Source of the DNA: an uncultured Actinomycetota bacterium
Lineage (GTDB): Bacteria > Actinomycetota > Thermoleophilia > RBG-16-64-13
Assembly (NCBI GenBank): GCA_963777945.1
Contig: CAVZSN010000006.1
Location: forward strand, 194,834 to 258,833
Direction: 5' to 3'
DNA: 64,000 bases
Below, in pieces: positions 36,112 through 56,321 of this stretch. How positions within the stretch are numbered: position 1 is the stretch's first letter; each line of letters starts with the position of its first letter. Position numbers and translations under genes: made by a program. Under the pieces are notes generated by a model. The model had not been told where the DNA came from and did no database searches. It saw only the letters and a list, made by a program, of their open reading frames with translations.

Positions 36112-36113
36112 GT

Positions 36114-37769: not shown

Positions 37770-39259
37770 CTACGAGCGAGACTCCTCTAGACGTAGCTCT
37801 TGCACCTTGTCCTGCACCGGGATGCCAAGGTCCGGGCAGCCGCCGTGCTGACGATGGTGAGTTCGAACGGATACTTGGTTCCCGTCCGCCACTGACCGCC
37901 GACGAGCGGAGTCTTGTAGACGTTCTCCACGATGTGGCACGGGCCCACCTGGAACGGCGGGGTCGCGCCTACGACCGGAGCGGTGAAGTCGATCGGCCCA
38001 CCGATGGTGTCGAGCTTCGTGCGTCTTGACAGCCGCGATGATGGCTTCCTTGTCGTCCACGCTGGTCGCCCGCTTGAGGGCGTCCACCGCCATCTCGAAG
38101 ACGATGAAGTGGAGCAGGGGCTGAGTCCACTGGGCGCCGTCGTTGGCGGCGGTGAACTTGTCGGCGAACTGCTGGCAGGTCTCACCCAACAGCGACGAGG
38201 TGAACGGGTGGCTGGGAGTCCACCAGACCTCGGTGGTGAGGTCGTTGGCAATATCGCCCAGCGCTTCCACCGACTGCGGGAATAGCAGGGCCTTGGCGTA
38301 GGTGGCCAGCTTGGGCTTCCACCCCTGCTGGATGGCCTGCTTCCAGAAGTTGGTGAAATCCGGCGGGATGAAGACGCCCATGCCGATCTCGGCAGCCGGC
38401 CTTCTTGAACTCGGAGATCTGGACGGTGAAGTCCTCGGTGCCCGACCTGGTACTGGCTGGGGACCACGGCAGTGAGCCCTGCCGGCTGATAGACGGGTTC
38501 CCAGCCGGGTAGCCAGGCGTTGCCGTCGGCGTCGTTCGGGAACATTGCGCCCACGACTTTGTTGTTGGGCACCTGGCTCCACATGTCGAGGAACGTCGCT
38601 TGGACGTCCTCGAGACCCCAGAACGTGTGATAGGTCCACTTGAAGACGGCGTTCAGGTCGCCGGCGCTGCGCCCGCCCACGTATGGCTGCCACGGGCAGT
38701 CGTTGGTGACACAGGGCGTTCCGCCCGCCTCGGCCTGGTCGGCCACCGGGTTCACGGTGTCGGGAGTGGAAGCCGCTGTGACGATGTCGACCTTGTCGTT
38801 GTTGATGAGGTCGCCCGTCACCTGGGCGGCGCGGGCCCCGTCGGACTGGCTGTCCTTGGTGATGATGGTGACCGGGTGCTTCAGGCCGTCACCGCAGACG
38901 ATGCCATCGCCGATAGCTTCCTGCGCTCTTTCGACGCAGTACTTATCCGGCACGCCGAAGGAGGCCAGACCACCGGTCTGGGGGGTCACGAAGCCGATCT
39001 TGACTTCGCGCCCCACTTCGGCGCCGGCGCTCACCGTGGTGGTAGAACCGGCTGCCGCCGTCGTGGTGGTAGCGCCAGCTGCCGTGGTAGTGGTGGCGCC
39101 CGCTGCGGTGGTAGTGGTCTCCTCGGCCTCGCCGCAGGCGGCGAGCACACCGCTCAGACCGGCGCCGACACCGATGGTCGCGCCGGCGACACCCGCTACC
39201 TTGAGAAACTGCCGGCGGCTTACGCCGGATCCGAGCGTACGTTCTTCCTTGTCAGACAT
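37770..39259 (-). pseudogene. ABC transporter substrate-binding lipoprotein (Leu/Ile/Val-binding-protein fold) with Tat signal, about 4 frame changes
   Basis: The N-terminus has SRRQFLK, lipobox LAAC and a TTTTAAGA-repeat linker. The first ~275 aa are in ORF 37787..39259. The remainder alternates with ORF 37770..38693 (GMGVFIPPDFTNFWKQAIQQGWKPKLATYAKALLFPQ...). The exact C-terminal end (37770 or 37787) is unresolved. Confidence 0.75.
39029..39118 (-). repeat. coding Thr/Ala linker repeat (TTTTAAGA x3)
   Basis: Read from the translation TTTTAAGATTTTAAGATTTTAAAGSTTT. The DNA shows the matching ~24-nt periodic repeat. Confidence 0.7.
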
Positions 39260-39474
39260 TACCCCTCCTTGAAGAGTTCACACACGCAAAAAGTGCGCCG
39301 AGCCCGTGCCGGCGCGGCGCTATCCAGCAATGCTCCAGTAGCGCTCCCCCTTTCCTGCATCCACGGATCCGCGAGCAGGCCCTCGGACCCTGTCCGCCCA
39401 TATACTAGGCTGACTATCTTTGTTTCGACAATCCCCTGCAACTACCTCGTCTTGCCGCACACGGGACCCGCAGC

Positions 39475-40275
39475 TCAATCGACCGGCAAACCGAAGAAGT
39501 CCCTCGGATTCTGGTAGCAGACCTTGTCGATGGTGGCCTTGTCGAGCCCGAACAGCTTCATGGCGAGGATCACCCGCGGGACCATGAAGTAGTCGTTGCC
39601 TTCCCCTCCGAGCTCGGAATTGATAATGATCTTGTCGCGCATCTCCGGGTGATCGATGACGTAACGAGCCGCGGGTTCCGGAGGCATCTTGTCCCAGCAT
39701 ATGGACAGCCCGACCATGCCCCCGGTCGTGGCCCGGTAGTCCAGCGTCTCCTCGCCCGCATGGTCGAAGACGCATCTCTCCACGGGGAAACCCTCTTCCT
39801 TGATGATCTCGAACACCTGTGGGAGCACGGTCTTACCCTGGGGTGCCAAGCGGATGGGGGTGTGGAGGATGACGGGAAGGTCATGCTTCTTGGCGAGCCG
39901 CAGATGCTCGCGGAACAGATCCTTCTCGTACTCGGTCGCGGTGTCGAGGCCGATCTCGCCGAGGGCGACCACCCGGTCTTCTCTGAGGAACTCGGGCAGC
40001 TTCGCCAGGCATTTCTCGGTGTCGGCACGGTTGACCCCGAAGAAGGGCACCGAGAGACTGGTGAAGAGCTCGAAACCCAGGGTCTTGGCTGTAGTGGTCT
40101 CCATGCCGAGAAAGCGCTCCCACAAGAGCTGAACGGCATCGGCATCACGACTGCCGAGGAACATGTGCGGGCTGGGGACTACCGCCGCCTCCATGCCCAT
40201 CATCACCAGCTTCTGCAGCTGCTTGTCCTCGATCATGTCGGTGTGCAGGTGGGCGTCGATAAAACGCATGGTCAC
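39475..40275 (-). CDS. TatD-like metal-dependent hydrolase (amidohydrolase superfamily)
   Basis: 266 aa, intact. N-terminal FIDAHLHTD (HxH metal motif), GEIGLD and ILHTP motifs. Confidence 0.7.
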   Translation of the reverse strand: MTMRFIDAHLHTDMIEDKQLQKLVMMGMEAAVVPSPHMFLGSRDADAVQLLWERFLGMETTTAKTLGFELFTSLSVPFFGVNRADTEKCLAKLPEFLREDRVVALGEIGLDTATEYEKDLFREHLRLAKKHDLPVILHTPIRLAPQGKTVLPQVFEIIKEEGFPVERCVFDHAGEETLDYRATTGGMVGLSICWDKMPPEPAARYVIDHPEMRDKIIINSELGGEGNDYFMVPRVILAMKLFGLDKATIDKVCYQNPRDFFGLPVD

Positions 40276-40278
40276 TCC

Positions 40279-40707
40279 TTATTCGTCCACGACGGCGATG
40301 GCGTCGATCTCGACCAGGCAGCGCGGATCCGTCGCCAGCCGCTGCACCTGGACGGTGGTGGAGGTGGGTTTGTATGCGCCCATGTACTCGTTCCACACCC
40401 TGTTCAGGTCGTCCTGGAGATCGAGGTCGGTGAGAAAGCGCTTGCAGTGGACCACGTTCTGGAGCGTCCCGCCGGCCGCTTCGACCGACCTCTTGAGGTT
40501 CTCCATGGTCATGCGGGCTTGGCTCAGCATGTCCGGGGGGATGCTGTCGAACTCGGCGGGCACGTGAGGATGACTGTGATACACCGGAGCCGCAGTGACC
40601 CCGGCGAAGAAGATGATGCTTCCCCCCGTCACCTTGATGGCCGGCGCATAGGGCATCATCACATCAGGGCGGTCCGGCCATTCGATGGGTTCGATCTTGA
40701 CGGTCAT
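40279..40707 (-). CDS. RidA/YjgF/L-PSP family protein
   Basis: 142 aa. ...IIFFAGVTA...ENLKRSVEAAGGTLQNVVHCKRFLTD...VQVQRLATDPRCLVEIDAIAV is the typical RidA-fold C-terminus. Confidence 0.8.
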   Translation of the reverse strand: MTVKIEPIEWPDRPDVMMPYAPAIKVTGGSIIFFAGVTAAPVYHSHPHVPAEFDSIPPDMLSQARMTMENLKRSVEAAGGTLQNVVHCKRFLTDLDLQDDLNRVWNEYMGAYKPTSTTVQVQRLATDPRCLVEIDAIAVVDE

Positions 40708-40826
40708 CGTTGCGCTCCTTTGCTCATCGTCCTCGGTCCGTGGCGAGGCTGGGACCCGCCCCCCGCAGGGGACAGGTCCCAGCCGTCGTGCGTCTTCAGC
40801 GAGACCTCACTCCGGACTCGCGAGGC

Positions 40827-41664
40827 TCACGCCTTCCAGATGGCGATGTCGCCGACGTTGATGTCTTTCGCGGTGATATCCACCGGACCGAACTTCTGGG
40901 TCAGGTAGCCGGGCTTCTCGATGAGCAGCGTGTAGACGCCGTCCTTGAGATCCCGCAGCCAGAAGTCGCCGTAGCTGTCGGAGGTCGCCTTGGCCTTCTC
41001 GCCGGTGGCGTTGTTGGTGGCGGTAACGGTCGCTCCTTCGGCGCACTCGTCCGCTTCCTGGTCGAACACCGCGCCGGCGATGAACTTCTTGGGTAGCCCG
41101 ATGTAGTACACCCTGGGCTTGACCTTGGCCAGAGCCGGCTTGAGCGGCTCGGCCTTGGCGATGAGGTCCTTGATCTTGGGATCGTCCTCGTCCCCGAAGG
41201 TGAAGGCTCCGGTCGGGACAGGCGTCCGCGCAGCGGGGCTCGCTCCAGCCGTCATCGAGAAGGTGCGCGCAGAACGTGCACTTCTGAGCGATGTTGAGAG
41301 CATCGTTGAAGTAGATGACGTTCTCGTACGGACAGGCCGCCAGGCACATCTGATTGCCGCGGCACTTGTCGGGGTCGATGATGACGATCCCGTCGGCGCG
41401 CTTGTAGATGGCGTGCGCGTTACAGGCCTCGATGCACGGAGCATCGTCGCAGTGCTGACAGATGCTGTGCTCGTACGTGACCTTGACCTTGGGCACCTGG
41501 CCGCGGACGTTGTCATGCACCTTGTTCCAGAACTGCCCGGTGTCGGGCTGCGGCTTGGCGATGGGCGACCAATCGTTGGCCACATGCTCGTCCTTGCACG
41601 AGACCTGGCAGTTGTAGCAGCCGTTGCAGATGTCGTAATTGATGACGAGTACCTTGCCCATCAT
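40827..41664 (-). CDS. 4Fe-4S beta subunit of a transhydroxylase-like molybdoenzyme (beta1), one frame change
   Basis: Ferredoxin Cys motifs CNGCYNCQVSC, CQHCDDAPCIEAC, CRGNQMCLAACP and CTFC...CADACP. The C-terminal Ig/carboxypeptidase-regulatory-like domain (ECAEGATVTATN...YGDFWLRDLKDGVYTLLIEKPGY) is in ORF 40827..41585. The frame change is at the G3 run 41225-41227. The ATG overlaps the alpha1 stop. Confidence 0.8.
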
Positions 41665-44286
41665 TCACCACCTATCAGGACGCACGCGTCTATACCGGGA
41701 CCCGCGCAGGGGTGGAAGGGCCGTGCGAAGGCTTCGGGGTACTTGGCTTTGAGGGCTTCCATGTCGGTCTTCTCGATGTCGACCAGGAACCCGCTCACCG
41801 CGTGGCCCACCGCGTTCTTGGACGTGGTGTGGCCGGGGACGATGGTGTTGATGGCTCCGCCGCGGTCGATGACGCCGGGTTCGATGGGATCCCATTTGGC
41901 GCCATGGTCGATGTAGACGACGTCGGGCATGATCCGCTCGGTTATGTACGCCCCGGCAAGAACAGTGCCACGCTCATTGAAGATGGACACGACGTCACCG
42001 TTCTTGATTCCGCGGGCCTCGGCCAGCGACGGGTGCAGCCAGACCGGATGGTACTGATAGCCGTCCGGACCGGTGATTTTGCAGGTCTCGATCTCCCTGA
42101 GCCAGGTGATGTCCTCGTGCTGGGAGTGGACGCTCCACCGCGGATGGTTGGAGCAGACCAGCAGGGGGTACTTGTTGGCGCGCTCGGTGCCCAGCGTCTC
42201 TTCGTGGCTGATGCCTTTGGCGACCCATTTGGGGACCGGCGGCCGTTCCAAGTCGTTGGGGAAGTTCTCCTTGAGACCGGTGGATTCGAACTCGAGTTTA
42301 CCGGTCGGAGTCGTCAGGGGATTCGCTTTCGGGTCTTCGTAGAAGCGCTGGAAGCCTGCCGGCTCATCCTCCCAGTTGTCCGCGGTGGGGATGACCAAGT
42401 AGCCCTTGTCGTTCAGGTCTTCCCAGCTGATGAGATCCGCGCAGCGGGAGGTCTCGTAGCCGTACTTGATGAGCTGCGGGATGGTCTTGCCACCCGTGTA
42501 CTCTTCCAACAGGCCCAGACGCTCGGCCATCATGCACGACGATCTCGTAGTCGCTGAAGGACTCGCCCAAGGGCTCGATGCACTTGTGCTCGGGAAAGAG
42601 CAGGTTGTACTGCCCGCTGAAGATGTCGCCGGCGATGTCGTCTTCTTCCAGCTTGGTGTTGACCGGAAGGATGATGTCGGCCAGCAGCGCGTCGTTCTCC
42701 AGCCAGGGATGCTGCGCCCACATGAACTCGATGTCGGTATGCTGCATGGCCCGGACGTACTCGTTCCCCGCGTTCCAGCAGGTGATCCACGACGGGGAGT
42801 CGGTCCACACCGCGTGGATCTTGGAGCAGCCCTCAGCGGGATAGAAGCGGTGGACGAACTGATCCTCGCGCGGAGCGGTCTCGGACTCGCAGCCCCACCA
42901 GTCACACTCACCCTCGAGGATAGCTTTAGGCACGTAGGTCTTGGGCAGCGAGGGGTGGTTGAGGTCGGAGGGATGGCCGCCGGTGTAGGCCGTCCGCAGA
43001 TTGGGCACCCGGAACGGCTTGGGCTGGGCATACTGATCGGGGAAGTCGAAGAGGCCCCACTCGATCATCTTGACCTGGTTGATACCGGGCTTGCCCAGAC
43101 CCTGCATGGCGAGGCAGATGTTCTGCAGGCGGGCGGGCTCGGTGGCGTACGGGCCGCGGATGCCGGGGCCGCCGTTGCCGATGACCACGCTGGTGCGTTT
43201 GGACGCCCACTCCTTGGCCAGCGCCTTGATGACCCGGGCCGACACTCCGCAGATGGGAGCCGCCCATTCCGGCGTCTTGGGGATGCCGTCTTCCTCGCCC
43301 ATGACGTAGGCCTCGTAGGCCTCGACGCCGATCGCGTGGGTCTTGAGATAGTCCTTGTCGTAGGTGCCGTCCTTGAACCACTGGTAGGTGATGGCGAGGT
43401 AGAGAGCCGCGTCCGTGTTGGGGAGGACGGGGATCCACCGGTCGGCGTGCACGGCCGCCGCGTAGTTGAGGTCCGGGCACACGTAGATCTGCTTGATGCC
43501 CAGCTCGGTGTACCAGTAGGAGAGCCGGCTGGGGAGCTGACCTTGCCAGCCCCACGGCGTGGTCTCCTGGTCGCAGCCCCAGAACAGAAGCAGTTCGCAG
43601 TTCTTGGCCACATCGTAGAGGAGGTTGCTCTGCTTGCCCTGGCCCACGGGCTCGCATCCCCAGAAGTGCTTGCTGCCCCACCACCAGCCTTCCCAGCTGT
43701 CGGGCTGACGGATCTGAAGGGTGTAGCCGCCCCACAGCGGAAGGAGCTTGCGCCCAGCGCCGTGGCAGGCCTGGACCACCTTGTTCTCGCCGTGCTGGTC
43801 GCACTGGTACAGGATGGCGGTCGGGCCATACGTCTCTTTGATCCGGTTCATCTCGCCGACGATAGTGTCGAGCGCTTCGTCCCAGGAGATGCGCACGTAC
43901 TTGCTCTTGCCCCGGTTCTGAGTATTGCGTCCGCCGGGCCCGGTGGAGCCGGGCGCGCCGCTCGGATCCCAGTCCACCCTCTTCATGGGGTAGCGGATTC
44001 GGGCCGGCGAGTAGACACGCTTCTTGTAGGCGATGGAATACGGTGGGATGAGGGTCTTCATGCTCGGCTCGAAGACCGATCCCCGCACTTCCATCTTCCA
44101 CGGGTTCATGTGCTTCTGGGGATCGTACTTCCAGTCGTAGTGCATCGGACGGATGCGGACTATCTTCCCGTCCTTCACATCCACCATCGAGGCGTTCGAC
44201 CCGTTCTCGGGGACCCCGCAGAAGCTGATGTCCCTGATGAGTGTCTTCTCGCCCGACTTACCGTTCGGGGCTCGATCTTCTGCCAT
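41661..44286 (-). CDS. molybdopterin (bis-MGD) oxidoreductase alpha subunit, pyrogallol-phloroglucinol transhydroxylase / resorcinol hydroxylase-like (alpha1), one frame change
   Basis: Start at the ATG at 44286, after GGAAGGAGG. N-terminal part is from ORF 42364..44307 and C-terminal part from ORF 41661..43031, joined near 42537 (SFSDYEIV|CMMAERLG by comparison with alpha2). About 875 aa. No RR Tat signal and no N-terminal Cys cluster. Confidence 0.8.
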
Positions 44287-44307
44287 CCTACCTCCTTCCG
44301 TATCCAA

Positions 44308-44337
44308 GCTATTCCGCTCAATGGAATAGCTATTCCG
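44308..44337. promoter_or_regulatory. candidate operator: inverted repeat plus extra half-site upstream of alpha1
   Basis: gctattcc-gctcaat-ggaatagc is a perfect 8-bp inverted repeat, immediately followed by tattccg. It lies 22-50 nt upstream of the alpha1 ATG and downstream of the IclR gene. Confidence 0.3.
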
Positions 44338-44448
44338 TCATTGCGGCCTACTAAGTGTGGCACGCGCCACCGGCGCGCGTCAATCCTCGGCTCCCGTCTC
44401 CGGGGCTTGATGGCCGCCGCGACCGCTGCCGGCCGGCTATCGCCTCCC

Positions 44449-45285
44449 CTAGAGCGACGTCCTGTCGGCAATCGAGGTACTGCGAAAGTAGGCGGTCATT
44501 TCCGCGGCCTTATTCTTGACGGCATCCGCATTCCTCCCGCGGGCCTCCGCACCGAAACGGTCTGACGGGGCCACCACGGTCAGCACAGCGAGCACGTCGC
44601 CGCCGGGTCCGAAGACCGGGGCCGAGACCGCGCAGACGCCCACGTCCTGCTCTTCCAGGTCGAACGCCACTCCCTCGCCGGCGGCCCGGTCGAGCATCGC
44701 CGCCAGCTCCGCCGGGTCGGTGGTCGTGTGAGGTGTGAACTTGAGTTGCGGCTCACGTAGCAGCCGCGCCTTCTCTTCGTCGGGCCTCGTCGCCACCCAC
44801 ATCCGGACGGCGGAGTTGGCCATGTTCGCGAGGATCCGACCGGTCGGCAGGTTGGGCTTGAACGGGTGGGAGGTGGCCACTTGATCGACGACCACGGCGC
44901 CCTGAGCGCTCTCCACCGTCAACTCGACCGTCTCCCCGGTGGCCTTCGCGAGATCCTCCAGGAACGGATGGGTGTAGCGGACGAAGCTGACATAGGAGAG
45001 GGCCAAGTAGGCCCCGGGGATCATGGCCCTGCCGAGGTGATAGCGTTCGGTATCGGGGTCGAAGGCCACGAACTCCTTCCACTCGAGGGTGCGGAGCACC
45101 CGGTAGGCCGTGGTCTTCGATATGCCGGTCCGTCGGCAGATCTCGTCGAGGCTCCACTCCGGGTGTTCCACATCGAAGAGCGCGAGGATGGAGAGCCCGC
45201 GAGCGAGCGCCTGCACATAAAGGTCGCTCTCCTCCTCCGAGCGCCCCGCCAGGGACGCGCGCGGCCGTCCTCCCGCCCTAGCCAT
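44449..45285 (-). CDS. IclR-family transcriptional regulator embedded in the molybdoenzyme cluster
   Basis: ORF 44449..45339. Start taken at the ATG at 45285 (MARAGGRPRASL...). wHTH ALARGLSILALFDVEHPEWSLDEICRRTGISKTTAYRVLRTL plus an IclR effector domain. Confidence 0.85.
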   Translation of the reverse strand: MARAGGRPRASLAGRSEEESDLYVQALARGLSILALFDVEHPEWSLDEICRRTGISKTTAYRVLRTLEWKEFVAFDPDTERYHLGRAMIPGAYLALSYVSFVRYTHPFLEDLAKATGETVELTVESAQGAVVVDQVATSHPFKPNLPTGRILANMANSAVRMWVATRPDEEKARLLREPQLKFTPHTTTDPAELAAMLDRAAGEGVAFDLEEQDVGVCAVSAPVFGPGGDVLAVLTVVAPSDRFGAEARGRNADAVKNKAAEMTAYFRSTSIADRTSL

Positions 45286-47900
45286 CCACCTTCTCCATCG
45301 AGTACGCCCGCGATGCACGGACCCGCGTCGGCGTGGCACTCCCGCTCGAACGCCTCCGGATAGCGACGGCGAAGGCCTTCCAGGTCGATCTTCTCCACCT
45401 CGGCCAGAAAACCGGACACCACCATCCCCACAGCGTTTTTGGAGGTCGTGTTCCGCGGCACGATGGTGTTGATGGCACCACCACGGTCAATCTCCCCTGG
45501 GACCACGGGATCGTACTTGGCCCCGTGGTCGATACCTACCACACCGGGCATGATGCGCTCGGTCAGATAGGCGCCGGCCAGTACCGTCCCGCGTTCGTTG
45601 AAGATGCTGACCACATCGCCGTGCATGACCCCCCGCGCCCGGGCGTCGGCAGGATTGATCCACAGCGGGTGGTAGTGGTATCCATCGGCGCCCCTCACCT
45701 TGCAGGTCTCGATCTCGCGGAACCAGGTGACATCGTCATGCTGGGAGTGGACTCCCCATCTGGGGTGGTTGCTCATCACGAGCAGCGGATACTTCTTGCT
45801 TCGCTCCGTACCTAGGGTTTCCGCATGAGTCGAGCCTTGCGCGATCCACTTCGGCACCGGTCCCCGTTCGTCGTCGCCGGGGAAATGCTCGGCCAGACCG
45901 GTAGCGTAGAATTCGAGCTTGCCGGTGGGGGTGGTGAGCGGATGTCCCTCCGGATCTTCGTAGAACTCGATCATCCCGGCCGGGATCCTGTCCCAGTCGG
46001 GATCGGGCGAGACCACGTAGTAGCCCTTCTCGTTCAACTCTTCCCAGCTGATCAGATGAGCGGCCCCCGAGCGTTCGTACCCAGCGCGGATCAGTTCCGA
46101 TACCGTCTTCCCGCCGGTATATGCCTCAAGCAGCCCTAGACGGTCGGCAATCTTGCAGACGATCTCGTAGTCGCTGAACGACTCACCCAGAGGCTCCACA
46201 CAGCGCGTCTCCGGAAACAGCAGGTTCATCTGCCCGCCGAACACATCGTTGGCGATATCGTCCTCCTCGAGCTTGGTGTTGACCGGCAGGAGGACGTCGG
46301 CAAAGAGGGCATCATTCTCCAGCCACGGGTGCTGGCAGAAAATGAACTCTATCGAATCGTCCCGCATGGCCTGGATGAAGTGGTTCCCTTCGTTCCAGCA
46401 CGTGATCCAGGAAGGGGAATCGGTCCAGATCATGTGGATGCGAGAGGCGCCTTCGACCGGATACTGGTAGTGGACGAACTGGTTCTCCCGGGGGGCGAAC
46501 TCCTCCTCCGCACCCCACCAGTCGACCGAACCCTCCAGAATGGCTCTCGGCACCAGGCTCTTGGGAACGAAGTTCGGATGAGTGTCGCCCGGCGTGCCTC
46601 CTGTGTAGCCAGCAAGCACGCTCGTGAACACCGAGGGCGCAGGAGGGGACATCTGCTCGTAATCGTGGTGCAGACCCCACTCGATCATCTTGGACTGATT
46701 GCATCCTGGCTTCCCGAGGCCCTGCATCGCTAGGCACAAGACCTGCAGCCGAGCAGGCTCCGTGGAGTACGGGCCGCGGATGCCCGGGCCGCCGTTGCCG
46801 ATGACGACCGTGGTCCGTTTCGACGCCCATTCGGCGGCGAGGGCCTTGATGATGCGGGCTGGGACTCCGGTGATCGGCTCGGCCCACTCCGGGCTCTTCG
46901 GCACACCGTCCTCCCGCCCCATCACGTAGGCCTCGAACATGTCGACGCCGTAGGCGTGAGTCTCGAGATACGCCTCGTCGTACGTGCCGTCCTTGAACCA
47001 CTGGTAGGTGATGGCTAGGTAGAGCGCGGCATCGGTGTTGGGCAGTACGGGGATCCACTTGTCGGCGTGGACAGCATTGGCGTAGTTGCAGTCGGGCGCT
47101 ATGTAGATCTGCCTGATGCCGAGCTCCGTCCACCAGAAGCTCAGCCGGCTGGGAAGTTGCCCTCCCCAACCCCAGGTGGTGGTCTCCTGGTCACAGCCCC
47201 AGAACAAGAGAAGTTCCGCGTTCCTGGAGATGTCGAGAAGTAGGTTCTTCTGCGGCATCTGCTGACCCACCGGTTCGCAGCCCCACACGTGCTTGGCGCC
47301 CCACCACCAGCCTTCCCAGCTATCGGGCTGGCGCGCCTGGAGTGTGTACCCGCCGAACAGACGCAAGAGCTTGCGCCCGCACCCGTGCGGACCGTGGACC
47401 ACCTTGTTCTCACCGTGCTGGTCCGACTGATACAGGATGGCCTCCGGTCCGTATCGCTCCTTCATCCGCAGCATCTCGCTGGTGACGATGTCGAGCGCCT
47501 CGTCCCAGGAGATGCGCACGTACTTGCTCACCCCACGGTTCTGGATGTTGCGCCCACCCGGACCGGCGGAGCCGGGCGCGCCCGCCGGGTCGAAGTCCAC
47601 CCGCTTCATCGGGAACCGGATGCGGGCGGGTGAGTACACGCGCTTCTTGTACGCCAAACTGATGGGTCCGATGAGGCTCTTGTCGCTTGGCTCGAAGGTC
47701 TTGCCCCGAGCGTGCATCACCCAGGGCTTCACTTCCTCCCGGGTGTACCGCTCGTAGTACCGGGCCGGACGGATGCGGATGATCTTCCCGTCCTTGACGT
47801 CCACCATGGCCGCGTTCGCCCCTGCCCCCACGCCGCACCAGCTGAGGTCGCGGACGATGGTCCGCTCTCCCTGTGTCGCGCGTTCGTTGCTCTCCCGCAT
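45021..47900 (-). CDS. transhydroxylase-like molybdoenzyme alpha subunit (alpha2), no adjacent beta; ORF lacks a stop at the expected end (~45291)
   Basis: Start at the ATG at 47900, after GAGGGGG. Collinear with alpha1 at roughly 70% identity by eye, as far as ...YPEAFERECHADAGPCIAGVLDGE. The last ~90 codons are Arg-rich and run out of frame through the IclR gene, so they are probably not real protein. Confidence 0.8.
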   Translation of the reverse strand: MRESNERATQGERTIVRDLSWCGVGAGANAAMVDVKDGKIIRIRPARYYERYTREEVKPWVMHARGKTFEPSDKSLIGPISLAYKKRVYSPARIRFPMKRVDFDPAGAPGSAGPGGRNIQNRGVSKYVRISWDEALDIVTSEMLRMKERYGPEAILYQSDQHGENKVVHGPHGCGRKLLRLFGGYTLQARQPDSWEGWWWGAKHVWGCEPVGQQMPQKNLLLDISRNAELLLFWGCDQETTTWGWGGQLPSRLSFWWTELGIRQIYIAPDCNYANAVHADKWIPVLPNTDAALYLAITYQWFKDGTYDEAYLETHAYGVDMFEAYVMGREDGVPKSPEWAEPITGVPARIIKALAAEWASKRTTVVIGNGGPGIRGPYSTEPARLQVLCLAMQGLGKPGCNQSKMIEWGLHHDYEQMSPPAPSVFTSVLAGYTGGTPGDTHPNFVPKSLVPRAILEGSVDWWGAEEEFAPRENQFVHYQYPVEGASRIHMIWTDSPSWITCWNEGNHFIQAMRDDSIEFIFCQHPWLENDALFADVLLPVNTKLEEDDIANDVFGGQMNLLFPETRCVEPLGESFSDYEIVCKIADRLGLLEAYTGGKTVSELIRAGYERSGAAHLISWEELNEKGYYVVSPDPDWDRIPAGMIEFYEDPEGHPLTTPTGKLEFYATGLAEHFPGDDERGPVPKWIAQGSTHAETLGTERSKKYPLLVMSNHPRWGVHSQHDDVTWFREIETCKVRGADGYHYHPLWINPADARARGVMHGDVVSIFNERGTVLAGAYLTERIMPGVVGIDHGAKYDPVVPGEIDRGGAINTIVPRNTTSKNAVGMVVSGFLAEVEKIDLEGLRRRYPEAFERECHADAGPCIAGVLDGEGGWLGREDGRARPWRGARRRRATFMCRRSLAGSPSSRSSMWNTRSGASTRSADGPAYRRPRPTGCSAPSSGRSSWPSTPIPNAITSAGP

Positions 47901-48055
47901 GTCGCCCCCTCGGGAGAGCTCGCAGGCCGGCCGGCGGTCACCGACGCCGCCGCCCACCAGCATAACTCCCCCCGGCCCGCGGGCGTGCCCCTTATTGCGA
48001 GCGCGGCTGTCAGAGGACGGGCTGTGGCAGACCGCTACCCGCGAGCGAAAAGAAA

Positions 48056-48079
48056 GGGGCCCGTCGCATGACGGGCCCC
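48056..48079 (-). terminator. intrinsic terminator between beta3 and alpha2
   Basis: On the minus strand, ggggcccgtc-atgc-gacgggcccc (10-bp stem) is followed by tttcttttcg. It lies about 35 nt after the beta3 stop. Confidence 0.7.
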
Positions 48080-48112
48080 GATCGTCAGACTACGTCGTTT
48101 GCGTCGGGCCGG

Positions 48113-48951
48113 CTACGCCCTATCGAGCATCACGAGACCCAGGTTGAGGCTCTCGTCGAGCGTAACGGTCCTGGACACGGCCTTGTAGCCCTCGGCCGCG
48201 ATGGTCACGTCGTAGCTCTTGCCGGGCTCGAGATGGTCGACTACGAACTCGCCGTAGTTGTTGACCATACCTTCGCCGACGACGGCGCCTGCAGCAGAGA
48301 CGGTGACTTTCGCGCCCTCGGCACACTCATCGGTGTCCTTGAAGGCGACGCTGCCGAAGCGAACACCTTGGTCCACCGGTGCAGGTTCTTGTACCAGACG
48401 CGGGGCTTGGCGCCCAGTTCGGGCCTGAGGACTTCCAGGCCGTCTGCCGCGACCAGACCGGCCATCTCGGCGTCGTCGGTAAGAACCAACTTGATCGCCT
48501 CGGTGGGACACACCATGCTGCACCGGGTCTCGGTCCATCCGGCGTCGAGCAGATGCGCACATCCGGTGCACTTCTGCGCCAGTTGCAGCTCTTCATTCCA
48601 GTAGATGACCTCGTACGGGCAGGTCTTGACGATCTCCGGATGTCCCTTGGCCTTCTCCGGATCGATGATGACGAGACCGTCTTCGCGCTTGTACACCGTG
48701 CCCGCGGGCGAATCCTTGATGCAGGGGGCGTCATCGCATTGCAGACAGGGGGTGGGCCGGAACACCGGCTGGACGATGGGGTGCTGGCCCCGCTCTTTGC
48801 GTTCGATGTTCATCCAGCGATGCCCCGTCCACGGCTGAGCCAGGGAGTAGGGCGGGAAGTCGTTACCGACGAACTCGTCCTTGTCGGAGAGGAAGCAGTC
48901 GTTGCAGTCGTGGCAACGAGCCAGGTCGATCACCATGTTCCACTTCTTCAT
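48113..48951 (-). CDS. 4Fe-4S beta subunit (beta3), one frame change
   Basis: Start at the ATG at 48951, overlapping the alpha3 stop (ATGA). Cys motifs CHDCNDCFLS, CLQCDDAPCI, CPYEVIYWN and CTGCAHLL...CSMVCP. The C-terminal Ig-like domain (ECAEGAKVTVS...YGEFVVDHLEPGKSYDVTIAAEGY) is in ORF 48113..48571. The shift is near 48366-48375. Confidence 0.8.
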
Positions 48952-51543
48952 TTGGCCTTGCCCTCCCATTTCTCCACCTGGATGAGGCACGAGTTGTTGG
49001 CCATTGAGGTAGAAGTCGGTGTGATGTAGCGTTTGGGTGCGAGAATATTGACACATCCCGAGGTATCCGGGGAGTAGCCGGGCTCACCCAGCGGCAGGTA
49101 GTCCGCGCACGATTCGTAGGAGTGCACCGTCCCGGCGGGCACGCGCTCGCTGATGGCGGCGGCCAGAATGACCGACCCCCGATCGTTGTAAGCCTGGATC
49201 AGGTCGTGGTGCTTGATGCCGCGCGCTTCGGCGTCTTTGGTGTTGATGCGCATGACCCAGTACTTGTGGCCGTCGATCAGAACGCGGTGGTCCTTGACGT
49301 CGTTGAGCCAGCTCTCCTTGGAGTCACCCATGGTGTGGAAGCTGAACCGCGGGTGCGGCGACACCATCTGCAGCGGGTAGGTGCTGTAGCTCGGCGTCCG
49401 GTGGCCTTCCCAAGAGGGGATGTATTGGGGGCCCATGACCGGCCGTTCGGGATCGATGTTGCCGCCCTCCTCGAACCGCCTCAGGCTGCTCGACACGAAC
49501 TCGATCTTGCCTGTGGGGTCTGCAGGCCCTTCGAGCGCGACGGTGTCGGCAGGGTGCGGACCCCAGTCGGGAGTGTCCTTCTCCCGGCCCTCCGCGAACC
49601 AGCGCATGGCCGGGGTGGACTTGTGGTCTTTCGGGAAGGGGACGACGACGTAGCCCTTCTTCTCGAACTCCTCCCAGGTGGTGATCTTGGGGAGGTCGGT
49701 GGCGTAGAAGTATTCCTTCACCCACTGCAGCTCGTCCTTGCCACCCATGGTGAAGATCGGCCCGATGCCCAGCCGCTCCGCGAACATGCGGAAGATCTCG
49801 TAGTCGGATTTCGACTCACCCAGCGGCTCGATGCACTTCTTCTGCAGCACGATCATACGGTGATTCACCTGTGCGCCCGTATGCGGGATGTAGCCCGAGC
49901 AGTTGGCGAACTCGCTGATGTCCCAGCGCTCGAAGTTGGTGCAGGCGGGAAGGATGATGTCGGCGAAGCGGGCCTCACCCTCGAACCAGATGCACTGGTT
50001 GACGACCATTCCGATCTTGCCTTCCCGGTACGCCCGGACGTAGCGGTTGGTCTCGGTCATGGTGCCGATGAAGGAGGTGCCGTACTTCCAGTACATCTGC
50101 ACGTGCGGGTAGCCGGGGGCCGGATACTCGTACTTCTGAAATTGTGACTCGATCGAGGAGCCGCAGAAGCCCTTGCCGTGCCAGCGCACCTTCTCGTGCA
50201 TCATGGCTTCGGGGATATTGATCCTGGGAATGGTCTGCCCCTCGGTGGAGTGGTGGGCAGTCCGGGTCGCGCCCCGCTTGTTCGCGAACATGCGGTACAC
50301 GAACTCGTATCCGGCGGCCGAGTTGTCGACGTCACCGGAGATGCCACCCTCGGCGTAGCCGGGGAAGAAGAACGACTCGTCGCTGGGAGCTCCCTGCGAG
50401 GTGCCCCAGATGTTGCTGCCCGGCTTGCCGTAGCCCTGCATGGCGGCGAGAGCGATCATGACCCGGGCCCACTCGTTGCCGGTGGCGGAACGGCAGGCAC
50501 CGCCCCAACCGCCAAGACCTCCAGCGGCCAGCATGGTCTTCTTGCTGCCCCATTCGCGAGCCAGAGCCCGGATCTCGCGCGCCGGGATCCCACACTCGGT
50601 CTCGGCCCACTCGGCGGACTTGGCCACGCCGTCGGTCTTGCCGAGCACGTAGTCTTTCCACTCGTCGAAGCCGTGGGTGCGAGCAGCCACGTATTCCTTG
50701 TCGTAGAGGTCCTCGGTCAGCCAGGTGTGCGCGACACCAAGACCGAACGCCACATCGGTGCCGAGCCGAGGCGAGAACCACTTGTCGGCGAACAGGGTCG
50801 CCGTCGGATTGTAGTAGGGATCGACGAACACCATCTTGATCCCGAGTTCCTTGCATCCAGAAACGGCGTGGTGTGCTCTCGAAAGCGGAGTAGATGCCGC
50901 CGCCGGTGGTCTCCGGGTCGGATGACCAGAAGACGACCATCTCGGTGTGCTTGAGAGCGTCTTCCAGGAGGTCGTACTGTTCGGGGATGCCGAGGCGGTG
51001 GCTGTTGCCCCACATGTGGATCCCGCCCCAGTGCCAACCTTCCCAGCTGTCGGGGTTGTGTTCACCGTAGGTGAAACCGACGAGGTTCATGAAGCGGAAA
51101 TAGGTGCTGTGCCGGTAGCCCACGTTCCCCCACAGGTGGTGCGAACCAGGGGTGGACAGGATCGCGGCGGGGCCGACTTCCCTCTTGAGCCGGATGATCT
51201 CGTCGCACACGATGTCGAGCGCCTCGTCCCAGCTGATCGGCTCGTACCCGGAAACGCCGCGGTTCTGGATGTTACGCTCGCCCTTGGGATCGAAGTCCAC
51301 CCTCTTCAGAGGCGTGAGAACGCGCTTGGGCGAATAGACCATGGACCTCTGCGCCACCGCGTGCGGGGACAGGGTCGTCCGGCGTTTGGGCTTGAATGTT
51401 CGACCCCGAGCTTGGATGGTCCAACCTTCGGGATCACTCTCTTGCAGGTCGATGGGGAACATGCGGATGATCTTGCCGTCCTCCACATCCACGAAGAGTG
51501 GCCCCCCGGTCGTTCCATTTGTGAATCTCTCGACTTTTCCCAT
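48948..51543 (-). CDS. transhydroxylase-like molybdoenzyme alpha subunit (alpha3, more divergent), one frame change
   Basis: N-terminus from ORF 50332..51543 (MGKVERFTNGTTGGPLFVDVEDGKIIRMFP...PDSWEGWHWGG) and the rest from ORF 48948..51065, joined near 50853. About 865 aa. No Tat signal and no N-terminal Cys cluster. Confidence 0.8.
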
Positions 51544-51831: not shown

Positions 51832-52820
51832 CTACTTCAGCGGGTAGATGTCGTAGCGTTCCTTCTCGGCGGCCGGGCCGTAACCGGTACCGCAGTAGGT
51901 GTAGGTACGATCCGGAACGCCCTTGTTGACCTGATCTTCGTCGATCTCGGCCACGCAGCGGACCATCGAGCCGTCGCCCATGTACCAGCGGATCGGGAAG
52001 CAGTAGAACCGGAAGCGCTTGCCGGCCACCTTGTCCAGGTCTCCGCCGAGGTTCTCAACGCCGACGATGCCATGACCCAGCATCTGCTTGTGGCAGGGTT
52101 CCCACGTTCCCCATTCGCCGAGCGCTTCGAGCTCGCCGTATCTGGCGTCGTAGGCCTCCTTGCCGTGCAGCTTGATGTAGAGCTCGCGGTCGAATTCGGC
52201 ATAGGCCTCTTCACCGAACTGCTCGGCGTATTCTTCAGTGATCGTCCTGCCGGATTTGCCGAGCAGGTTCATCCGCGGCGGCCCGTTGTTGCCCATGGCC
52301 GTGTGAAGCGGATGGTCAAGCGCCTGCGAATCCATGGCAACGCACTTGGGCCCGTACTTGACGAACCATTTGCCGGCTTCGAGACCGGTACCGCATGCGT
52401 AGTGGTAGTAGTCCTTGGAGTCGTCGAACAGGCGATGCATGCCGGTGTTGAGGCACACGACCATGCCCTTGAGTTCGGTCGGTTTGATGTTCGCCCGCTC
52501 GCAGGCGTCTTCGAGATGCGGCGGGCACGGATCAGGCCCCACTGGTGGATCTTGATCTCGAGGCAGACCGCGTCGCCCGTGTAGGCGTCAACGGGCATCT
52601 CGTGGGTGTAGCGAGCCCTTTTGCCGTTGAATTCCCGCTCCATGACGTGACGGGGGGCGTCGGCGTGGGTGCCGGTGTGCTGGACACAGTCGACCCTCTG
52701 CGTGAGGACGCCGCCCTTGGCCATGGTGTGCATCGAATCGATGACCGGTTTCACGAAATACGGCCAGCGAGGGATCTCTGCACTAAATGGATGTGTCAGA
52801 TCGACCCATACTTTCCCCAT
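51832..52820 (-). CDS. cyclase-family (kynurenine formamidase / isatin hydrolase fold) metal hydrolase; candidate dihydrophloroglucinol cyclohydrolase; one frame change
   Basis: N-terminus from ORF 52269..52820 (MGKVWVDLTHPFSAEIPRWP...HTGTHADAPRH, the cyclase-family His motif). C-terminus from ORF 51832..52542. The shift is at the C4 run 52537-52540. Confidence 0.75.
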
Positions 52821-52926
52821 AGTCCCTACTCATCTCCTTTGCTCGTTGCCTTATGACTGACGGGCGCACGATGCGTCCGATCTGTCCTCTATTTGCACCG
52901 GCGGTCTGCCGGTGTCTCCCATTCTC

Positions 52927-53892
52927 CTAGCTGCCGGCCTCCGCCTCGTTCATCTCGCGCACTGCCTTGGTCAAGTAGCCGAGCAGACGGCTGCGAAGCG
53001 CTTTCTGCTCCTCGGGCGTCCAGGTCTGGTAACCGACGCCGCCCGTCTTGAAGCCCAGTTCGTTCTTGGCCACCTTCTCCTTGAGGAGCGGCGAAGGCTC
53101 GTGCGAGTCCTCCAGGTATTTGAGCACGTAGTTGTGTATGGACAGCGTGAGGTCGAGCCCGACCATGTCGGCGTTCTCGCACGGAGCGAGCACCGGCAGG
53201 CGCAGCCCTGGCCCGTACTTGAGGCTCTCGTCCACGGTCTTGGGATCAGCGATGCCCCGCTCGACGATGGACAGAGCCTCTCGCCACAAGGCGTGCTGCA
53301 GCCGGTTGGCGATGAAGCCCGGGACGTCCTTCTTGCAGTGCACCGGCCGCTTGCCGATGGCCTTGTGCAGCTCCATGGTGACATCGATGACCCAGGCCGG
53401 CGTCTCTTCGGTCTGGACCACCTCGACCAACGGGATGAGGAACGGCGGGTTCCACCAGTGAGTCCCGATTATCCTGTCGCGCTTCTGGGACTTGCTGCCG
53501 ATCTCCGTCGGGCTCATCACCGAGGTGTTGGTCGCCAGGATGGCGTCCGGCTTACACATCTGATCGAGCTTCTGGAAGGTGTCCTGCTTGAGGCCCATAT
53601 CCTCGGCCACGCATTCGAGCACGAAATCCGCGTCGGCCGCAGCCTCCGCCATGTCCTGGGTGGTGCTGACCCGGGCCATGGTAGGCTCGACGTCTTCCAG
53701 CGTGCCCAGGCCGCGCTCGGCCAGGAACGTCAGGTCGCTCCGCATCGCCTCGATGCCCTTCTCCAAGGTCTCCGCTCTGCGGCTGTACATGCCGACCGGA
53801 TAGCCGGCAGCCGCGAAGACCATGGCGCAGCCGTGCCCCATGCTGCCACCACCGACGATCGCGATCTTCTTGACGTCCTCCAGTTTCATCAT
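52927..53892 (-). CDS. 3-hydroxyacyl-CoA dehydrogenase-family NAD-dependent dehydrogenase (carnitine / gulonate 3-dehydrogenase-like); candidate 3-hydroxy-5-oxohexanoate dehydrogenase
   Basis: 321 aa, intact. Rossmann IAIVGGGSMGHG, and the family core NTSVMSPTEIG...HWWNPPFLIPLVEVV. Confidence 0.8.
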   Translation of the reverse strand: MMKLEDVKKIAIVGGGSMGHGCAMVFAAAGYPVGMYSRRAETLEKGIEAMRSDLTFLAERGLGTLEDVEPTMARVSTTQDMAEAAADADFVLECVAEDMGLKQDTFQKLDQMCKPDAILATNTSVMSPTEIGSKSQKRDRIIGTHWWNPPFLIPLVEVVQTEETPAWVIDVTMELHKAIGKRPVHCKKDVPGFIANRLQHALWREALSIVERGIADPKTVDESLKYGPGLRLPVLAPCENADMVGLDLTLSIHNYVLKYLEDSHEPSPLLKEKVAKNELGFKTGGVGYQTWTPEEQKALRSRLLGYLTKAVREMNEAEAGS

Positions 53893-54695
53893 CCGGCCAC
53901 CGCCCCGCCGTCCACAGAGAGGATGAGGCCGGTCACGTAGTCAGACGCCGGAGAGGAGAGGTAGACGCAGGCGCCGATGAAGTCGTCCAGTTCGGCGGCC
54001 CGGCCCATGGGGATGCGTGCCATGAAGATCTTGACCATCTCCGGGTTGTCGCGGACCTGCTGGGTGAGCGGAGTCCAGAAGATGGAGGGGGCGATGGCGT
54101 TGACGTTGATCCTGTACTTGGCCCACTCGGTCGCCAGCTGTTTGGTGAGCAGGTGGACGGCCCCCTTGGAGGTGCCATAGGCCGCATATCCGCCGGGATG
54201 GCCGAGGAACCCGCGCACTGAACCGATGGTGATGACCTTGCCGCCGTCGCCCTGCTTGATGTATTCGGCGCCGGCATACTTCGCGCACAGCAGAGTGCCA
54301 CGGACGTTGACGTTCATGACCTTCTGCCACTCTTCGATGTCGAACGTCTCAGCGGGCTGGCGGTTGCCGGCGGTGCCGGCCACCGTGACCATGATGTTGA
54401 CCTTGCCGAAGTCCTTGACCACGCCCTCCATGGCGGCCTTGACACTGTCGTCCGAGGTCACGTCGACGGCGGAGGCGGTGGCGTTCTTGCCCAGGCCTTT
54501 GATGTCGGCCACTACATCGTCCATGATGTCGGTCTTGATGTCCCAGCACGCCACGTCGGCACCGAAGACCGCGAGTCCTTTGGCAAGCGCATGACCCAGG
54601 GTGCCGCCCGCGCCGGTCACTACCGCCACCTTGCCGGAGAGATCGAAGATCTTCCTGAGTTCCTCGACCGACTTTCTTGGTGTTTCTTCAGCCAT
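53889..54695 (-). CDS. short-chain dehydrogenase/reductase; candidate phloroglucinol reductase
   Basis: 268 aa, intact. TGAGGTLG cofactor motif and YGTSK catalytic motif. 4-nt overlap with the downstream gene. Confidence 0.85.
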   Translation of the reverse strand: MAEETPRKSVEELRKIFDLSGKVAVVTGAGGTLGHALAKGLAVFGADVACWDIKTDIMDDVVADIKGLGKNATASAVDVTSDDSVKAAMEGVVKDFGKVNIMVTVAGTAGNRQPAETFDIEEWQKVMNVNVRGTLLCAKYAGAEYIKQGDGGKVITIGSVRGFLGHPGGYAAYGTSKGAVHLLTKQLATEWAKYRINVNAIAPSIFWTPLTQQVRDNPEMVKIFMARIPMGRAAELDDFIGACVYLSSPASDYVTGLILSVDGGAVAG

Positions 54696-54738
54696 TCCCT
54701 TACCTCCCGATCAGCTTTGTCGTCTTCGCTCCGCCGGC

Positions 54739-55089
54739 CTAGGCTTCCTTGGGCATGCCCAGGATCACCATCATGCTCGCCGGGTACTGGGTCTTGTTCT
54801 TTATCGAACGGCCTTCGTCACCGGCGATGAAGATGGAGTCGTGAGCCTCAAGGACTATGTCTTTGCCATCTTTGTCGGTGATGGTGATCTCGCCGTCGAT
54901 GCAGAGATAGATAGTGTCGAACGGCCTTCCTGGGCTGAAATCGGCTCCGCCACCCGGCAGGAAGTGCGTGCAGCCCAGAGAGAACTGGGTGGTCCCCGTC
55001 TCTTCCTTGCCCTGCAGCCTGAAGCAGGCGCAGTCATTGTGCGCGGGAGGGAAATACCGCACTGCGTCACTGATCGAAACCTTCTTCAT
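54739..55089 (-). CDS. cupin-domain protein
   Basis: 116 aa. Small beta-barrel-type sequence (FLPGGGADFSPG...YLCIDGEITITDKDGKDIVLEAHDSIFIAGDE). Function unknown. Confidence 0.6.
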   Translation of the reverse strand: MKKVSISDAVRYFPPAHNDCACFRLQGKEETGTTQFSLGCTHFLPGGGADFSPGRPFDTIYLCIDGEITITDKDGKDIVLEAHDSIFIAGDEGRSIKNKTQYPASMMVILGMPKEA

Positions 55090-55098
55090 TCCTCACTC

Positions 55099-56034
55099 CT
55101 ACATCCGGCGACCATGGTCGCATTGCCGGCCACAGAGCCCGTTCTGACCACTCCGGCGAACGCGCTCGCTCTTTCGGCCGGGCTGACGCCCGACCGGACG
55201 ATGCCTTACTTCTTGGGAGAGCAGGCCCAGGATCTGCCGGGCCTCGGCCGGGCTGGCGACCGGACGACCGAACTCCTTGGCCAGACGCTGCACCTTCTCG
55301 ACGAACTCGAAGTTGTGCTGCGCGAGCACACCCTTGCTCAGGTAGACGTTGTCTTCCATGCCCACCCGCACATGGCCGCCCATGTTGATGGCCATGGCCA
55401 TGATGAGGTTAGCCGTGGGGCCGCAGCCGAACGCCGACCAAGTCGATCCCTCCGGCAGCGAGTCCACCAGGTGGACCAGGTTGCGCGCCGAGCCTTCCAT
55501 CCCACCGTGCACATGCATGCAGCACTGCCAGTGGATGGGCGCCTTGAGGAACCCGTCGGCCAGGAGACGTTTGGCGTTCCACACCATGCCGGCATCGAAC
55601 ACTTCCACTTCGGGCTTGATGCCGTGTTCGATATAGGCCGCACCCAGCTTCTCCAGGAACAGCGGGCTGTTCTGGAAGACACCTTTGTAGAAGTTCATGG
55701 TGCCGGCATCGAAGGTGCCCATGTCGGGCTTGAGTATCGTGTGAGGGTGGATGCGCTCTTCGTCGCTGAAACCCAGACCGCCGGAGGAGGTCATGTTGAG
55801 GACGATATCGGGGCACTTCTCGCGGACCAGGCTGACGGTCTTCTCGAACCTGTCGACTGCCATGGTGGCCTTGCCCTCTTCGGTGCGTACGTGGATATGG
55901 GCAATAGCGGCCCCGGCCTGGTACGCGCCGTACACCTCCTCGGCGATCTCCTCGGGCTGAGTCGGCAGATGGGGCGTGTTCTCTTTGGTGGTCATCGCCC
56001 CGGTCGTCGCCACGGTGATGATGAGCTTCTCCAT
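55099..56034 (-). CDS. beta-keto acid cleavage enzyme (BKACE / DUF849 family); candidate triacetate acetoacetate-lyase
   Basis: Start at the ATG at 56034, after GGAGGTCGAAC (MEKLIITVATTGAMTTKENTPHLPTQPEEIA...AAIAHIHVR...HVRVGMEDN, BKACE TIM-barrel motifs). The last ~35 codons are Arg/Gly-rich. A PKK-stop in another frame near 55200 suggests the true end may be there. Confidence 0.8.
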   Translation of the reverse strand: MEKLIITVATTGAMTTKENTPHLPTQPEEIAEEVYGAYQAGAAIAHIHVRTEEGKATMAVDRFEKTVSLVREKCPDIVLNMTSSGGLGFSDEERIHPHTILKPDMGTFDAGTMNFYKGVFQNSPLFLEKLGAAYIEHGIKPEVEVFDAGMVWNAKRLLADGFLKAPIHWQCCMHVHGGMEGSARNLVHLVDSLPEGSTWSAFGCGPTANLIMAMAINMGGHVRVGMEDNVYLSKGVLAQHNFEFVEKVQRLAKEFGRPVASPAEARQILGLLSQEVRHRPVGRQPGRKSERVRRSGQNGLCGRQCDHGRRM

Positions 56035-56321
56035 AAGTTCGACCTCCACGTCTTGTTGTCGATGCGACTCAGATACGGGGCATCGATCGGCGTCAAATCT
56101 CCCCGACGAGCAGCACTGGAAAACCACACGGCAGCCCGGATAACGACCCCACTTGAGGGCGAGGGTTCGGCAACTACTCTACACCATTCCGTTACCTGGC
56201 AGCCGACAGCTTAGTCGTTGCGGACCCGCCCTCCGATGAATACCGCAGAACGGTATGGCAATCCATCTTACGGTACAGTCCTGGTCTCCGGAAGCGCCGC
56301 CCGCAGCGGTTTCCCTTCGAC

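Follow-up and report, generated by a model that had tools for sequence, protein, structure and literature searches.

Three AthL-like catalytic subunits and two iron-sulfur small subunits: a modest variant of a known molybdoenzyme system in an uncultured actinobacterium

Why would one gene island encode three catalytic subunits resembling AthL, the large subunit of pyrogallol-phloroglucinol transhydroxylase, and only two of the iron-sulfur (Fe-S) small subunits that resemble BthL? The question was raised by an earlier note, made from the sequence alone, on 64,000 nt of DNA from an uncultured Actinomycetota bacterium (contig CAVZSN010000006.1 of assembly GCA_963777945.1, positions 194,834-258,833). 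This whole stretch is called the window here, and island coordinates are window positions. The window's own genome (G000), that of an anaerobic member of the Thermoleophilia from soil, amounts to 2.57 Mb in 11 contigs, with an estimated completeness of 59%, and its nearest relatives are Microflora Danica (MFD) metagenome-assembled genomes (MAGs), presumably long-read assemblies, and genomes labelled RBG_16_64_13 or Chersky_299. Six genes make up the island, all of them on the minus strand in the Pfam annotation: three AthL-like catalytic subunits (alpha1, alpha2 and alpha3), two Fe-S small subunits (beta1 and beta3) and one regulator of the IclR family. In our reading, which we hold to be probable, the region is a composite trihydroxybenzene or polyphenol catabolic island of three units, in which the small-subunit gene of alpha2 (beta2) was lost, alpha2 stayed functional and the breaks in the reading frames are assembly errors. 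The oddity that first strikes the eye is largely the norm of the family, part of it is assembly error, and the locus is a modest variant of a known system.

Family membership and active sites of the three alphas

The subunits were compared with the AthL/BthL crystal structure (4v4c_A and 4v4c_B) by full-length HMMER searches and by AlphaFold2 (AF2) fold comparison. All three alphas carry the AhtL-like N-terminal domain (PF21423) together with the Molybdopterin and Molydop_binding domains above the Pfam cut-offs, with the domains of alpha1 (41661..44286) and alpha3 (48948..51543; AhtL-like_1st 6.6e-26) spread across two frames. Alpha2 (45278..47900) matched 4v4c_A with 432 bits (E 3.5e-128, residues 31-839), and its AF2 model (predicted local distance difference test 79, predicted template modelling score 0.83) found in 4v4c_A its best structural match, with a template modelling (TM) score of 0.82; single-subunit DorA, MtsZ and TorA came next (TM 0.75). 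The serine ligand of the molybdenum, in the D-S-W motif (AthL D174-S175-W176), was kept in alpha1, alpha2 and alpha3 and in all 14 other aligned alphas. Both beta1 (40827..41664) and beta3 (48113..48951) contain Fer4_11 and a CarboxypepD_reg-type C-terminal domain, in each case distributed over two frames. Alpha1 and alpha3 each have an adjacent Fe-S small subunit that ends in a beta-barrel domain, and alpha2 has none. The start codons of the betas overlap the ends of their alphas as ATGA (alpha1/beta1 at 41661-41664, alpha3/beta3 at 48948-48951), and an IclR gene (44449..45285; HTH_IclR and IclR_C), not a beta, lies directly 3' of alpha2, both as the earlier note had described.

That note had also described alpha1 and alpha2 as close paralogs. 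This was confirmed at the protein level (70% identity), while the DNA identity of 72.6% over 2523 nt fell just under the claimed 75-80%. The far greater divergence of alpha3 was borne out by its 35-36% amino acid identity to the two others. None of the three alpha N-termini had an RR in a signal context, a CxxC or CX2CX3C motif or a hydrophobic stretch (maximum hydropathy over the first 70 residues <=1.16), and no in-frame TGA was present in any of the three genes. The cytoplasmic location deduced from such features is likewise supported, but it is no novelty, being the known defining state of the RhL/PgtL (AthL) family, whose members are cytoplasmic, Ser-ligated and devoid of the FS0 cluster (PMC10100899). 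Two other ideas were considered and rejected. The extension upstream of alpha2 (47901-47963) holds 'DRRP', but no hydrophobic stretch follows it, it is not kept in the relative G003, and the ribosome-binding site (RBS) and ATG at 47900 are conserved, so that correcting the start of alpha2 brought no cryptic Tat signal peptide to light. Selenocysteine paralogs were suggested by TGA or TAG codons flagged in many alphas of about 40% identity; the one examined, on contig C11 of the own genome, was a natural stop at the end of the match, and the others were assumed to be alike.

The active sites separate alpha3 from the other two. Once its frame was reconstructed, alpha3 was 63% identical to AthL of Pelobacter acidigallici, and it keeps nine of nine checked positions (H144, Y152, R153, D174, S175, W176, W354, Y404 and Y560); its intact ortholog in G003 matched 4v4c_A with 1270 bits. 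This list of pocket residues follows the AthL structure described in 2004, each position being matched to the residue numbers of the 4v4c_A sequence. Alpha1 and alpha2 are 36-37% identical to AthL and keep H144, D174, S175 and W176; Y152, R153 and W354 are missing, and the loops bearing Y404 and Y560 are deleted. Because only H144 remains of the AthL-ortholog pocket set (H144, Y152, R153, W354, Y404, Y560), all of which alpha3 has, alpha1 and alpha2 were not filed as AthL orthologs. They have the same fold and metal site as AthL with a remodelled substrate pocket, as judged from the alignment and the model. The earlier proposal that the paralogs differ in substrate therefore gains support for alpha3 versus alpha1 and alpha2 from the pocket residues; between alpha1 and alpha2, where just two of the checked pocket positions differ, it is a possibility.

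The fate of beta2 and the state of alpha2

A total of 79 related loci were collected, and a tree of 104 alphas was built in which each alpha was labelled by the gene 3' of it. Alpha1 belongs to the widely distributed clade A (53 rows), which spans Thermoleophilia, Dehalococcoidia, Oscillospiraceae, Desulfobacteraceae and Acidobacteriota and in which a beta was present for every member with a readable 3' flank. Alpha2 belongs to clade B (33 rows, support 99), which is specific to Actinomycetota according to the labels of all its source records and which consists of beta-linked subclades, the alpha2 clade (7 rows) and an orphan clade (14 rows). No beta was found within 6 kb on either side in the 14 rows of the orphan clade. 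In the alpha2 clade a beta was absent 3' of the alpha in all seven members, where IclR followed in five and another alpha in two; a beta2 gene beside an alpha2 ortholog, which the earlier note had named among the things that would count against it, was not found in any of the seven. In two loci of other genera, L026 and L035 (G012), the order is alphaB-betaB-IclR-alpha1 type-beta1 type, with alphaB 76-78% identical to alpha2, and in L035 a beta3 also stands in front of this array. The suggestion that IclR had taken the place of beta2 is not supported, for IclR lies upstream of alpha1-type genes in 17 loci, and L035 and L026 carry betaB and IclR side by side. Based on the beta-linked state of the nearest clade-B relatives and on the synteny of L035 and L026, it is most likely that beta2 was deleted in the alpha2 lineage, leaving a pre-existing iclR to abut alpha2.

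Alpha2 is not a decaying copy, a state that the earlier note had allowed for. Against six orthologs its dN/dS was 0.06-0.09 at a dS of about 1, and its conserved positions are not eroded; by these signs alpha2 is functional and under strong purifying selection. The GGAGTTATGCT element (47959..47969, minus strand), about 60 nt upstream of the alpha2 ATG, and the RBS AAGGGGGCGAC-ATG are kept in the window and in G003, G004 and G001. In G004 a different gene lies upstream of alpha2, and the GGAGTTATGCT element is still there. The element may be the -10 region of a promoter of alpha2 itself, and it seems that alpha2 is served by a promoter and an RBS of its own and is translationally coupled to iclR. 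From its ATG at 45285, iclR shares 8 nt with the end of alpha2 at the ancestral stop.

If beta2 was deleted, how does alpha2 work? The earlier note held that it must either borrow a beta or work alone, which is sound as a statement of the alternatives, and we hold the two to be almost equally likely. We tentatively prefer that alpha2 is served in trans by the beta1-type subunit of the neighbouring operon, since a 71%-similar beta1 is encoded 3 kb from alpha2 and tandem alpha-alpha-beta arrays, which suggest a shared beta, occur in L021, in L023 and on contig C8 of the own genome. It is also possible, and to be taken seriously, that alpha2 became a stand-alone single-subunit molybdoenzyme after the loss of beta2 and carries out a redox-neutral hydroxyl transfer or uses another redox partner. 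The AthL-type alphas lack an FS0 cluster, moving a hydroxyl group from one phenol to another involves no net redox change, and the nearest structural relatives after AthL are the single-subunit enzymes named above. Moreover, solitary orphan alphas are common: the 14-member sister clade is beta-less within 6 kb, with a nitroreductase-family gene directly 3' in five cases, and other beta-less AthL-type alphas occur in the own genome (C9:51875-54535 and C11:86037-91251). Besides the tandem arrays, what speaks against stand-alone action is that hardly any conserved position differs in the beta-less clades, as expected if a beta-docking surface is still used: among the positions at least 90% conserved in beta-linked alphas, 28 of 867 were changed in either beta-less clade. 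To our knowledge, every enzyme of the family characterised so far works together with its small subunit. An eroded docking surface as a mark of the beta-less clades was itself considered and dropped, the 28 differing positions being scattered, a judgement made without coordinates of the complex and hence not decisive.

Both of these possibilities start from the deletion of beta2, and a different history would be that alpha2 arose as a duplicate of the alpha gene alone, never had a beta and is a redundant spare of alpha1 with the same substrate. The 70% identity of alpha1 and alpha2 and their same four kept residues (H144, D174, S175 and W176) would agree with this, and a polytomy in clade B leaves the sister of the alpha2 clade unresolved. 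We nevertheless consider it improbable, because alpha2 lies in clade B and not with alpha1 in clade A, a split with 99% support that is older than the spread of clade A across phyla. Furthermore, the syntenic position in L035 and L026 is occupied by an alpha with its own beta, and purifying selection at a dS of about 1 argues against redundancy.

Frame breaks in the island genes

The coordinates that the earlier note gave for alpha1 and alpha3 are not those of continuous open reading frames (ORFs): each gene is split across two frames by one extra base. Frame errors, which that note did not mention, occur in five of the six island genes. The breaks were located by DNA alignment to intact orthologs in two sister genomes, and each proved to be a single-base indel. 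One extra base lies near 42537 in alpha1 (versus G003 and G004), near 50853 in alpha3 and near 41214 in beta1, and one base is missing near 48354 in beta3 (versus G003). In alpha2 the extra base (45300) precedes the ancestral TAG (45278-45280) by 20 nt; because this stop is removed, the ORF runs on to 45021 and overruns its expected end by 90 codons. The run-on passes out of frame through the IclR gene, and the idea of an alpha2-IclR fusion protein was dropped accordingly.

Since the orthologs in the sister genomes are intact and rpoB sits in three frames, it is highly probable that the five breaks are single-base assembly errors rather than pseudogenisation, as far as can be told from sequence comparison. 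The rpoB gene (G000:C11:55980-59452, outside the window) has at least two frameshifts, and the adjacent rpoC is intact; together with the completeness of 59% in 11 contigs, this points to single-base indel errors throughout the assembly. About half of the 14 AthL-like alpha paralogs of the own genome are split, one of them four times. Three unrelated neighbours are split too. The binding protein, which has a Tat signal, is divided between 37787-39259 and 37770-38693, an ABC ATPase ORF in the 36152-39259 region matched only 35 profile positions, and the ORF of the cyclase (DPGC-type) gene at 51832-52820 matched only the C-terminal half of its Pfam profile. Which island gene is broken varies among the sister MAGs, being IclR in G003 and alpha3 in G004. 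The G003 IclR ortholog (L014:9352-10230) runs into Arg/Gly-rich nonsense after 'TTTDP', which we attribute to a frameshift, and the G004 alpha3 ortholog (L013:2259-4911) consists of two overlapping ORFs.

Could the breaks be real, with alpha1, alpha3, beta1, beta3 and the alpha2 stop decaying in this strain? Five single-base indels within 10.7 kb might be taken as decay, and insertions make up four of them, whereas homopolymer deletions are the pattern usual for nanopore data; short homopolymers are found only at the beta3 break and possibly at the beta1 break. But the essential rpoB is broken twice in the same assembly, the breaks are spread over paralogs on six contigs and over unrelated neighbour genes, and in the sister MAGs it is other island genes that are broken. 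If the indels are set aside, the genes have no stops and no excess of amino acid changes, and alpha1 is 94% identical to an ortholog (L078). Decay of the island is therefore very improbable. With about one indel per 2-3 kb over the alpha paralogs on six contigs, gene calls from this assembly need frame correction before any inference of pseudogenes.

Units of the island and their relatives

Directly upstream of alpha3 and on the same strand (51832..56127), Pfam identified four families, a cyclase (51832-52542, with its N-terminus in another frame), a protein of the 3-hydroxyacyl-CoA-dehydrogenase type (52927-53892), an SDR (53889-54695) and a BKACE (55099-56127). The phloroglucinol pathway of Clostridium scatologenes consists of PGR, DPGC, 3-hydroxy-5-oxohexanoate dehydrogenase and TAL (PMC10470551). 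The same four families, SDR (as PGR), cyclase (as DPGC), the 3-hydroxyacyl-CoA-dehydrogenase type and BKACE (as TAL), are found here, a match at the family level only, and the pathway genes differ from the C. scatologenes cluster in being joined to three transhydroxylase-like alphas. Because of its 63% identity to AthL, the checked pocket residues that it keeps and the phloroglucinol-pathway families upstream, we read alpha3/beta3 on sequence grounds as a genuine pyrogallol-phloroglucinol transhydroxylase, the product of which would feed the four-gene pathway encoded directly upstream. In transhydroxylase proper, 1,2,3,5-tetrahydroxybenzene is the cosubstrate of this conversion. Cys groups II-IV of beta3 match BthL, as in the three-cluster type, the C-terminal beta-barrel domain is present, and an Asp stands where the fourth Cys of group I is expected. 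What is new about alpha3/beta3 and its phloroglucinol pathway is the host; the system itself is known. A terminator scan found a GC-rich hairpin directly 3' of beta3 (48056..48079, minus strand; 10 bp with nine GC pairs and a T-rich tail), which has equivalents in G003, G001 and L021 and is likely a terminator or attenuator between alpha3-beta3 and alpha2.

The alpha1-beta1 pair belongs to a module of wider distribution. In the 17 loci mentioned, some of which have no alpha2, the gene directly 5' of the alpha1-type gene encodes an IclR homolog (55-88% identity); IclR is, by this synteny, the conserved upstream gene of the alpha1-beta1 module. Genes for RidA, a TatD-like protein and a Liv-type ABC transporter lie 3' of alpha1-beta1. 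When a gut MAG of the Oscillospiraceae, Firmicutes (L062:4595-13732) was compared with window positions 34152-45285, IclR, the alpha1-type gene, the beta1-type gene and the Liv transporter recurred, and alpha2 was absent. The Liv-type transporter of L062 has a binding protein, two ATPases and a permease, and the alpha of L062 was 70% identical to alpha2 used as the query. This suggests that the whole IclR-alpha1-beta1-Liv module spread horizontally. The beta1 ortholog of G003 matched 4v4c_B with 170 bits. In beta1 the fourth Cys of group II is present and group III reads C-x2-N-x2-C-x3-CP, a pattern that could leave room for an extra (fourth) cluster, [3Fe-4S]. Three other betas of the own genome (C5 33932, C5 37592 and C11 37348) have all four Cys groups complete.

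As we infer the transcription units, the first would be alpha3-beta3, followed by the hairpin, the second alpha2 coupled to iclR, and the third iclR-alpha1-beta1. The last of these, shared across phyla, would be a hydroxylase or dehydroxylase for another phenolic substrate. Family membership, synteny, selection and the nature of the indels are thus shown by the data, and the substrates, the sharing of subunits and the transcription units are what we deduce from them. Several observations weigh against this picture as a whole. The pocket comparison depends on the choice of residues in the AthL structure, and each single indel is a probable rather than a proven error. The fork that joins the alpha2 clade to the beta-linked subclades of clade B is unresolved, which makes duplication of an alpha alone possible. 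Alpha1 and beta1 are translationally coupled, which would keep them at a 1:1 ratio and leave no evident excess of beta1 for alpha2. The T-tail of the hairpin after beta3 occurs in the window only, and no sigma-70 consensus site was found in a promoter scan.

Among the characterised systems, AthL/BthL (PgtL) of P. acidigallici (PDB 4V4C) is the closest. Alpha3/beta3 shares with it the 63% identity, the D-S-W motif, the checked pocket residues, a beta with a three-cluster type of Cys pattern and a C-terminal barrel, the cytoplasmic location and the lack of FS0, and it differs in the Asp that replaces the fourth Cys of group I in beta3. Alpha1 and alpha2 have in common with AthL the fold (TM 0.82), the AhtL-like N-terminal domain and H144, D174, S175 and W176. 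They differ from it in their 36-37% identity and in having lost Y152, R153, W354, Y404 and Y560, while beta1 has the extra Cys of a possible fourth cluster and alpha2 has no beta gene. By description, the island can also be likened to RhLS, the resorcinol hydroxylase of Azoarcus anaerobius, and DbhLS, the 3,5-dihydroxybenzoate hydroxylase of Thauera aromatica AR-1, which are Ser-ligated MopB enzymes of the RhL/PgtL branch acting on phenolic rings, with a large Mo subunit and a small Fe-S subunit (PMC10100899). A net hydroxylase would need an electron path, such as the Cys pattern of beta1 suggests. The hosts of RhLS and DbhLS are nitrate-respiring Proteobacteria, whereas the host of the island, an anaerobic actinobacterium, belongs to a lineage that has about 14-20 paralogs per genome. 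For an alpha2 without beta, the single-subunit type III members of the dimethyl sulfoxide (DMSO) reductase family (DorA, TorA, MtsZ and BisC) provide a precedent, being Ser-ligated and lacking both FS0 and an Fe-S subunit. However, they are only 24-25% identical, have no AhtL-like N-terminal domain and are mostly periplasmic, Tat-exported reductases of S- or N-oxides.

Paralog expansion in the lineage

The excess of alphas over betas is not peculiar to the island. The own genome has 14 alphas and eight AthL-type betas, and six good relatives have 13-21 alphas versus 9-15 betas. Within the same family, matches to PF21423 numbered 14 in the own genome, 13-21 in ten of 15 relatives, eight in one partial genome and 0-1 in four; nine genomes from elsewhere in the class, outside this family, had none. 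The expansion of the AthL family is lineage-specific. Three further alphas of the own genome (G000:C11:86037-91251 and G000:C9:51875-54535) have the full AthL-type pocket (Y404, R153, Y560) and no beta nearby, and the tandem alpha pair on C11 has the rpoA region on one side and rplM on the other. Directly 3' of a beta-less alpha, a nitroreductase-family (FMN) gene is present in L034 (8636-9334), L044 (8600-9154), L046 (8580-9176), L038 and L039, and in the own genome a 75%-identical nitroreductase gene (G000:C9:26049-26636) lies 3' of an alpha-beta pair on contig C9. The nitroreductase-family protein may be an alternative or additional redox partner. That about a third of the 14-21 AthL-family alphas per genome in this lineage, alpha2 included, are beta-free enzymes that stand alone or work with a non-Fe-S partner such as a nitroreductase-family flavoprotein is a proposal that we regard as rather unlikely.

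Multiple AthL operons are known in Chloroflexi (PMC3971608). In full-text literature searches we came upon no account of beta-less AthL-family subunits that are conserved, nor of an expansion reaching about 20 paralogs per genome. Records of two relatives carry the genus names RBG-16-64-13 and Chersky-299; both genera were reported to express catechin-degradation genes in peat, and pgthAB was widely expressed in the same study (10.1101/2024.10.22.619724). Together with the 14-21 paralogs per genome of about 3 Mb, the expression of catechin genes by both genera identifies the lineage as one specialised in turning over polyphenols anaerobically.

We know of no explanation for the role of the Fe-S clusters in the small subunit of transhydroxylase, the overall reaction of which moves no net electrons. 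Alphas that lost their beta and are under strong purifying selection would be a natural test of the need for beta, and alpha2, the 14-member orphan clade and the AthL-type orphans of the own genome are candidates for it. If about a third of the alphas of this lineage, alpha2 included, do work without an Fe-S beta, it would be a natural demonstration that beta is dispensable for hydroxyl-transfer chemistry on phenols.

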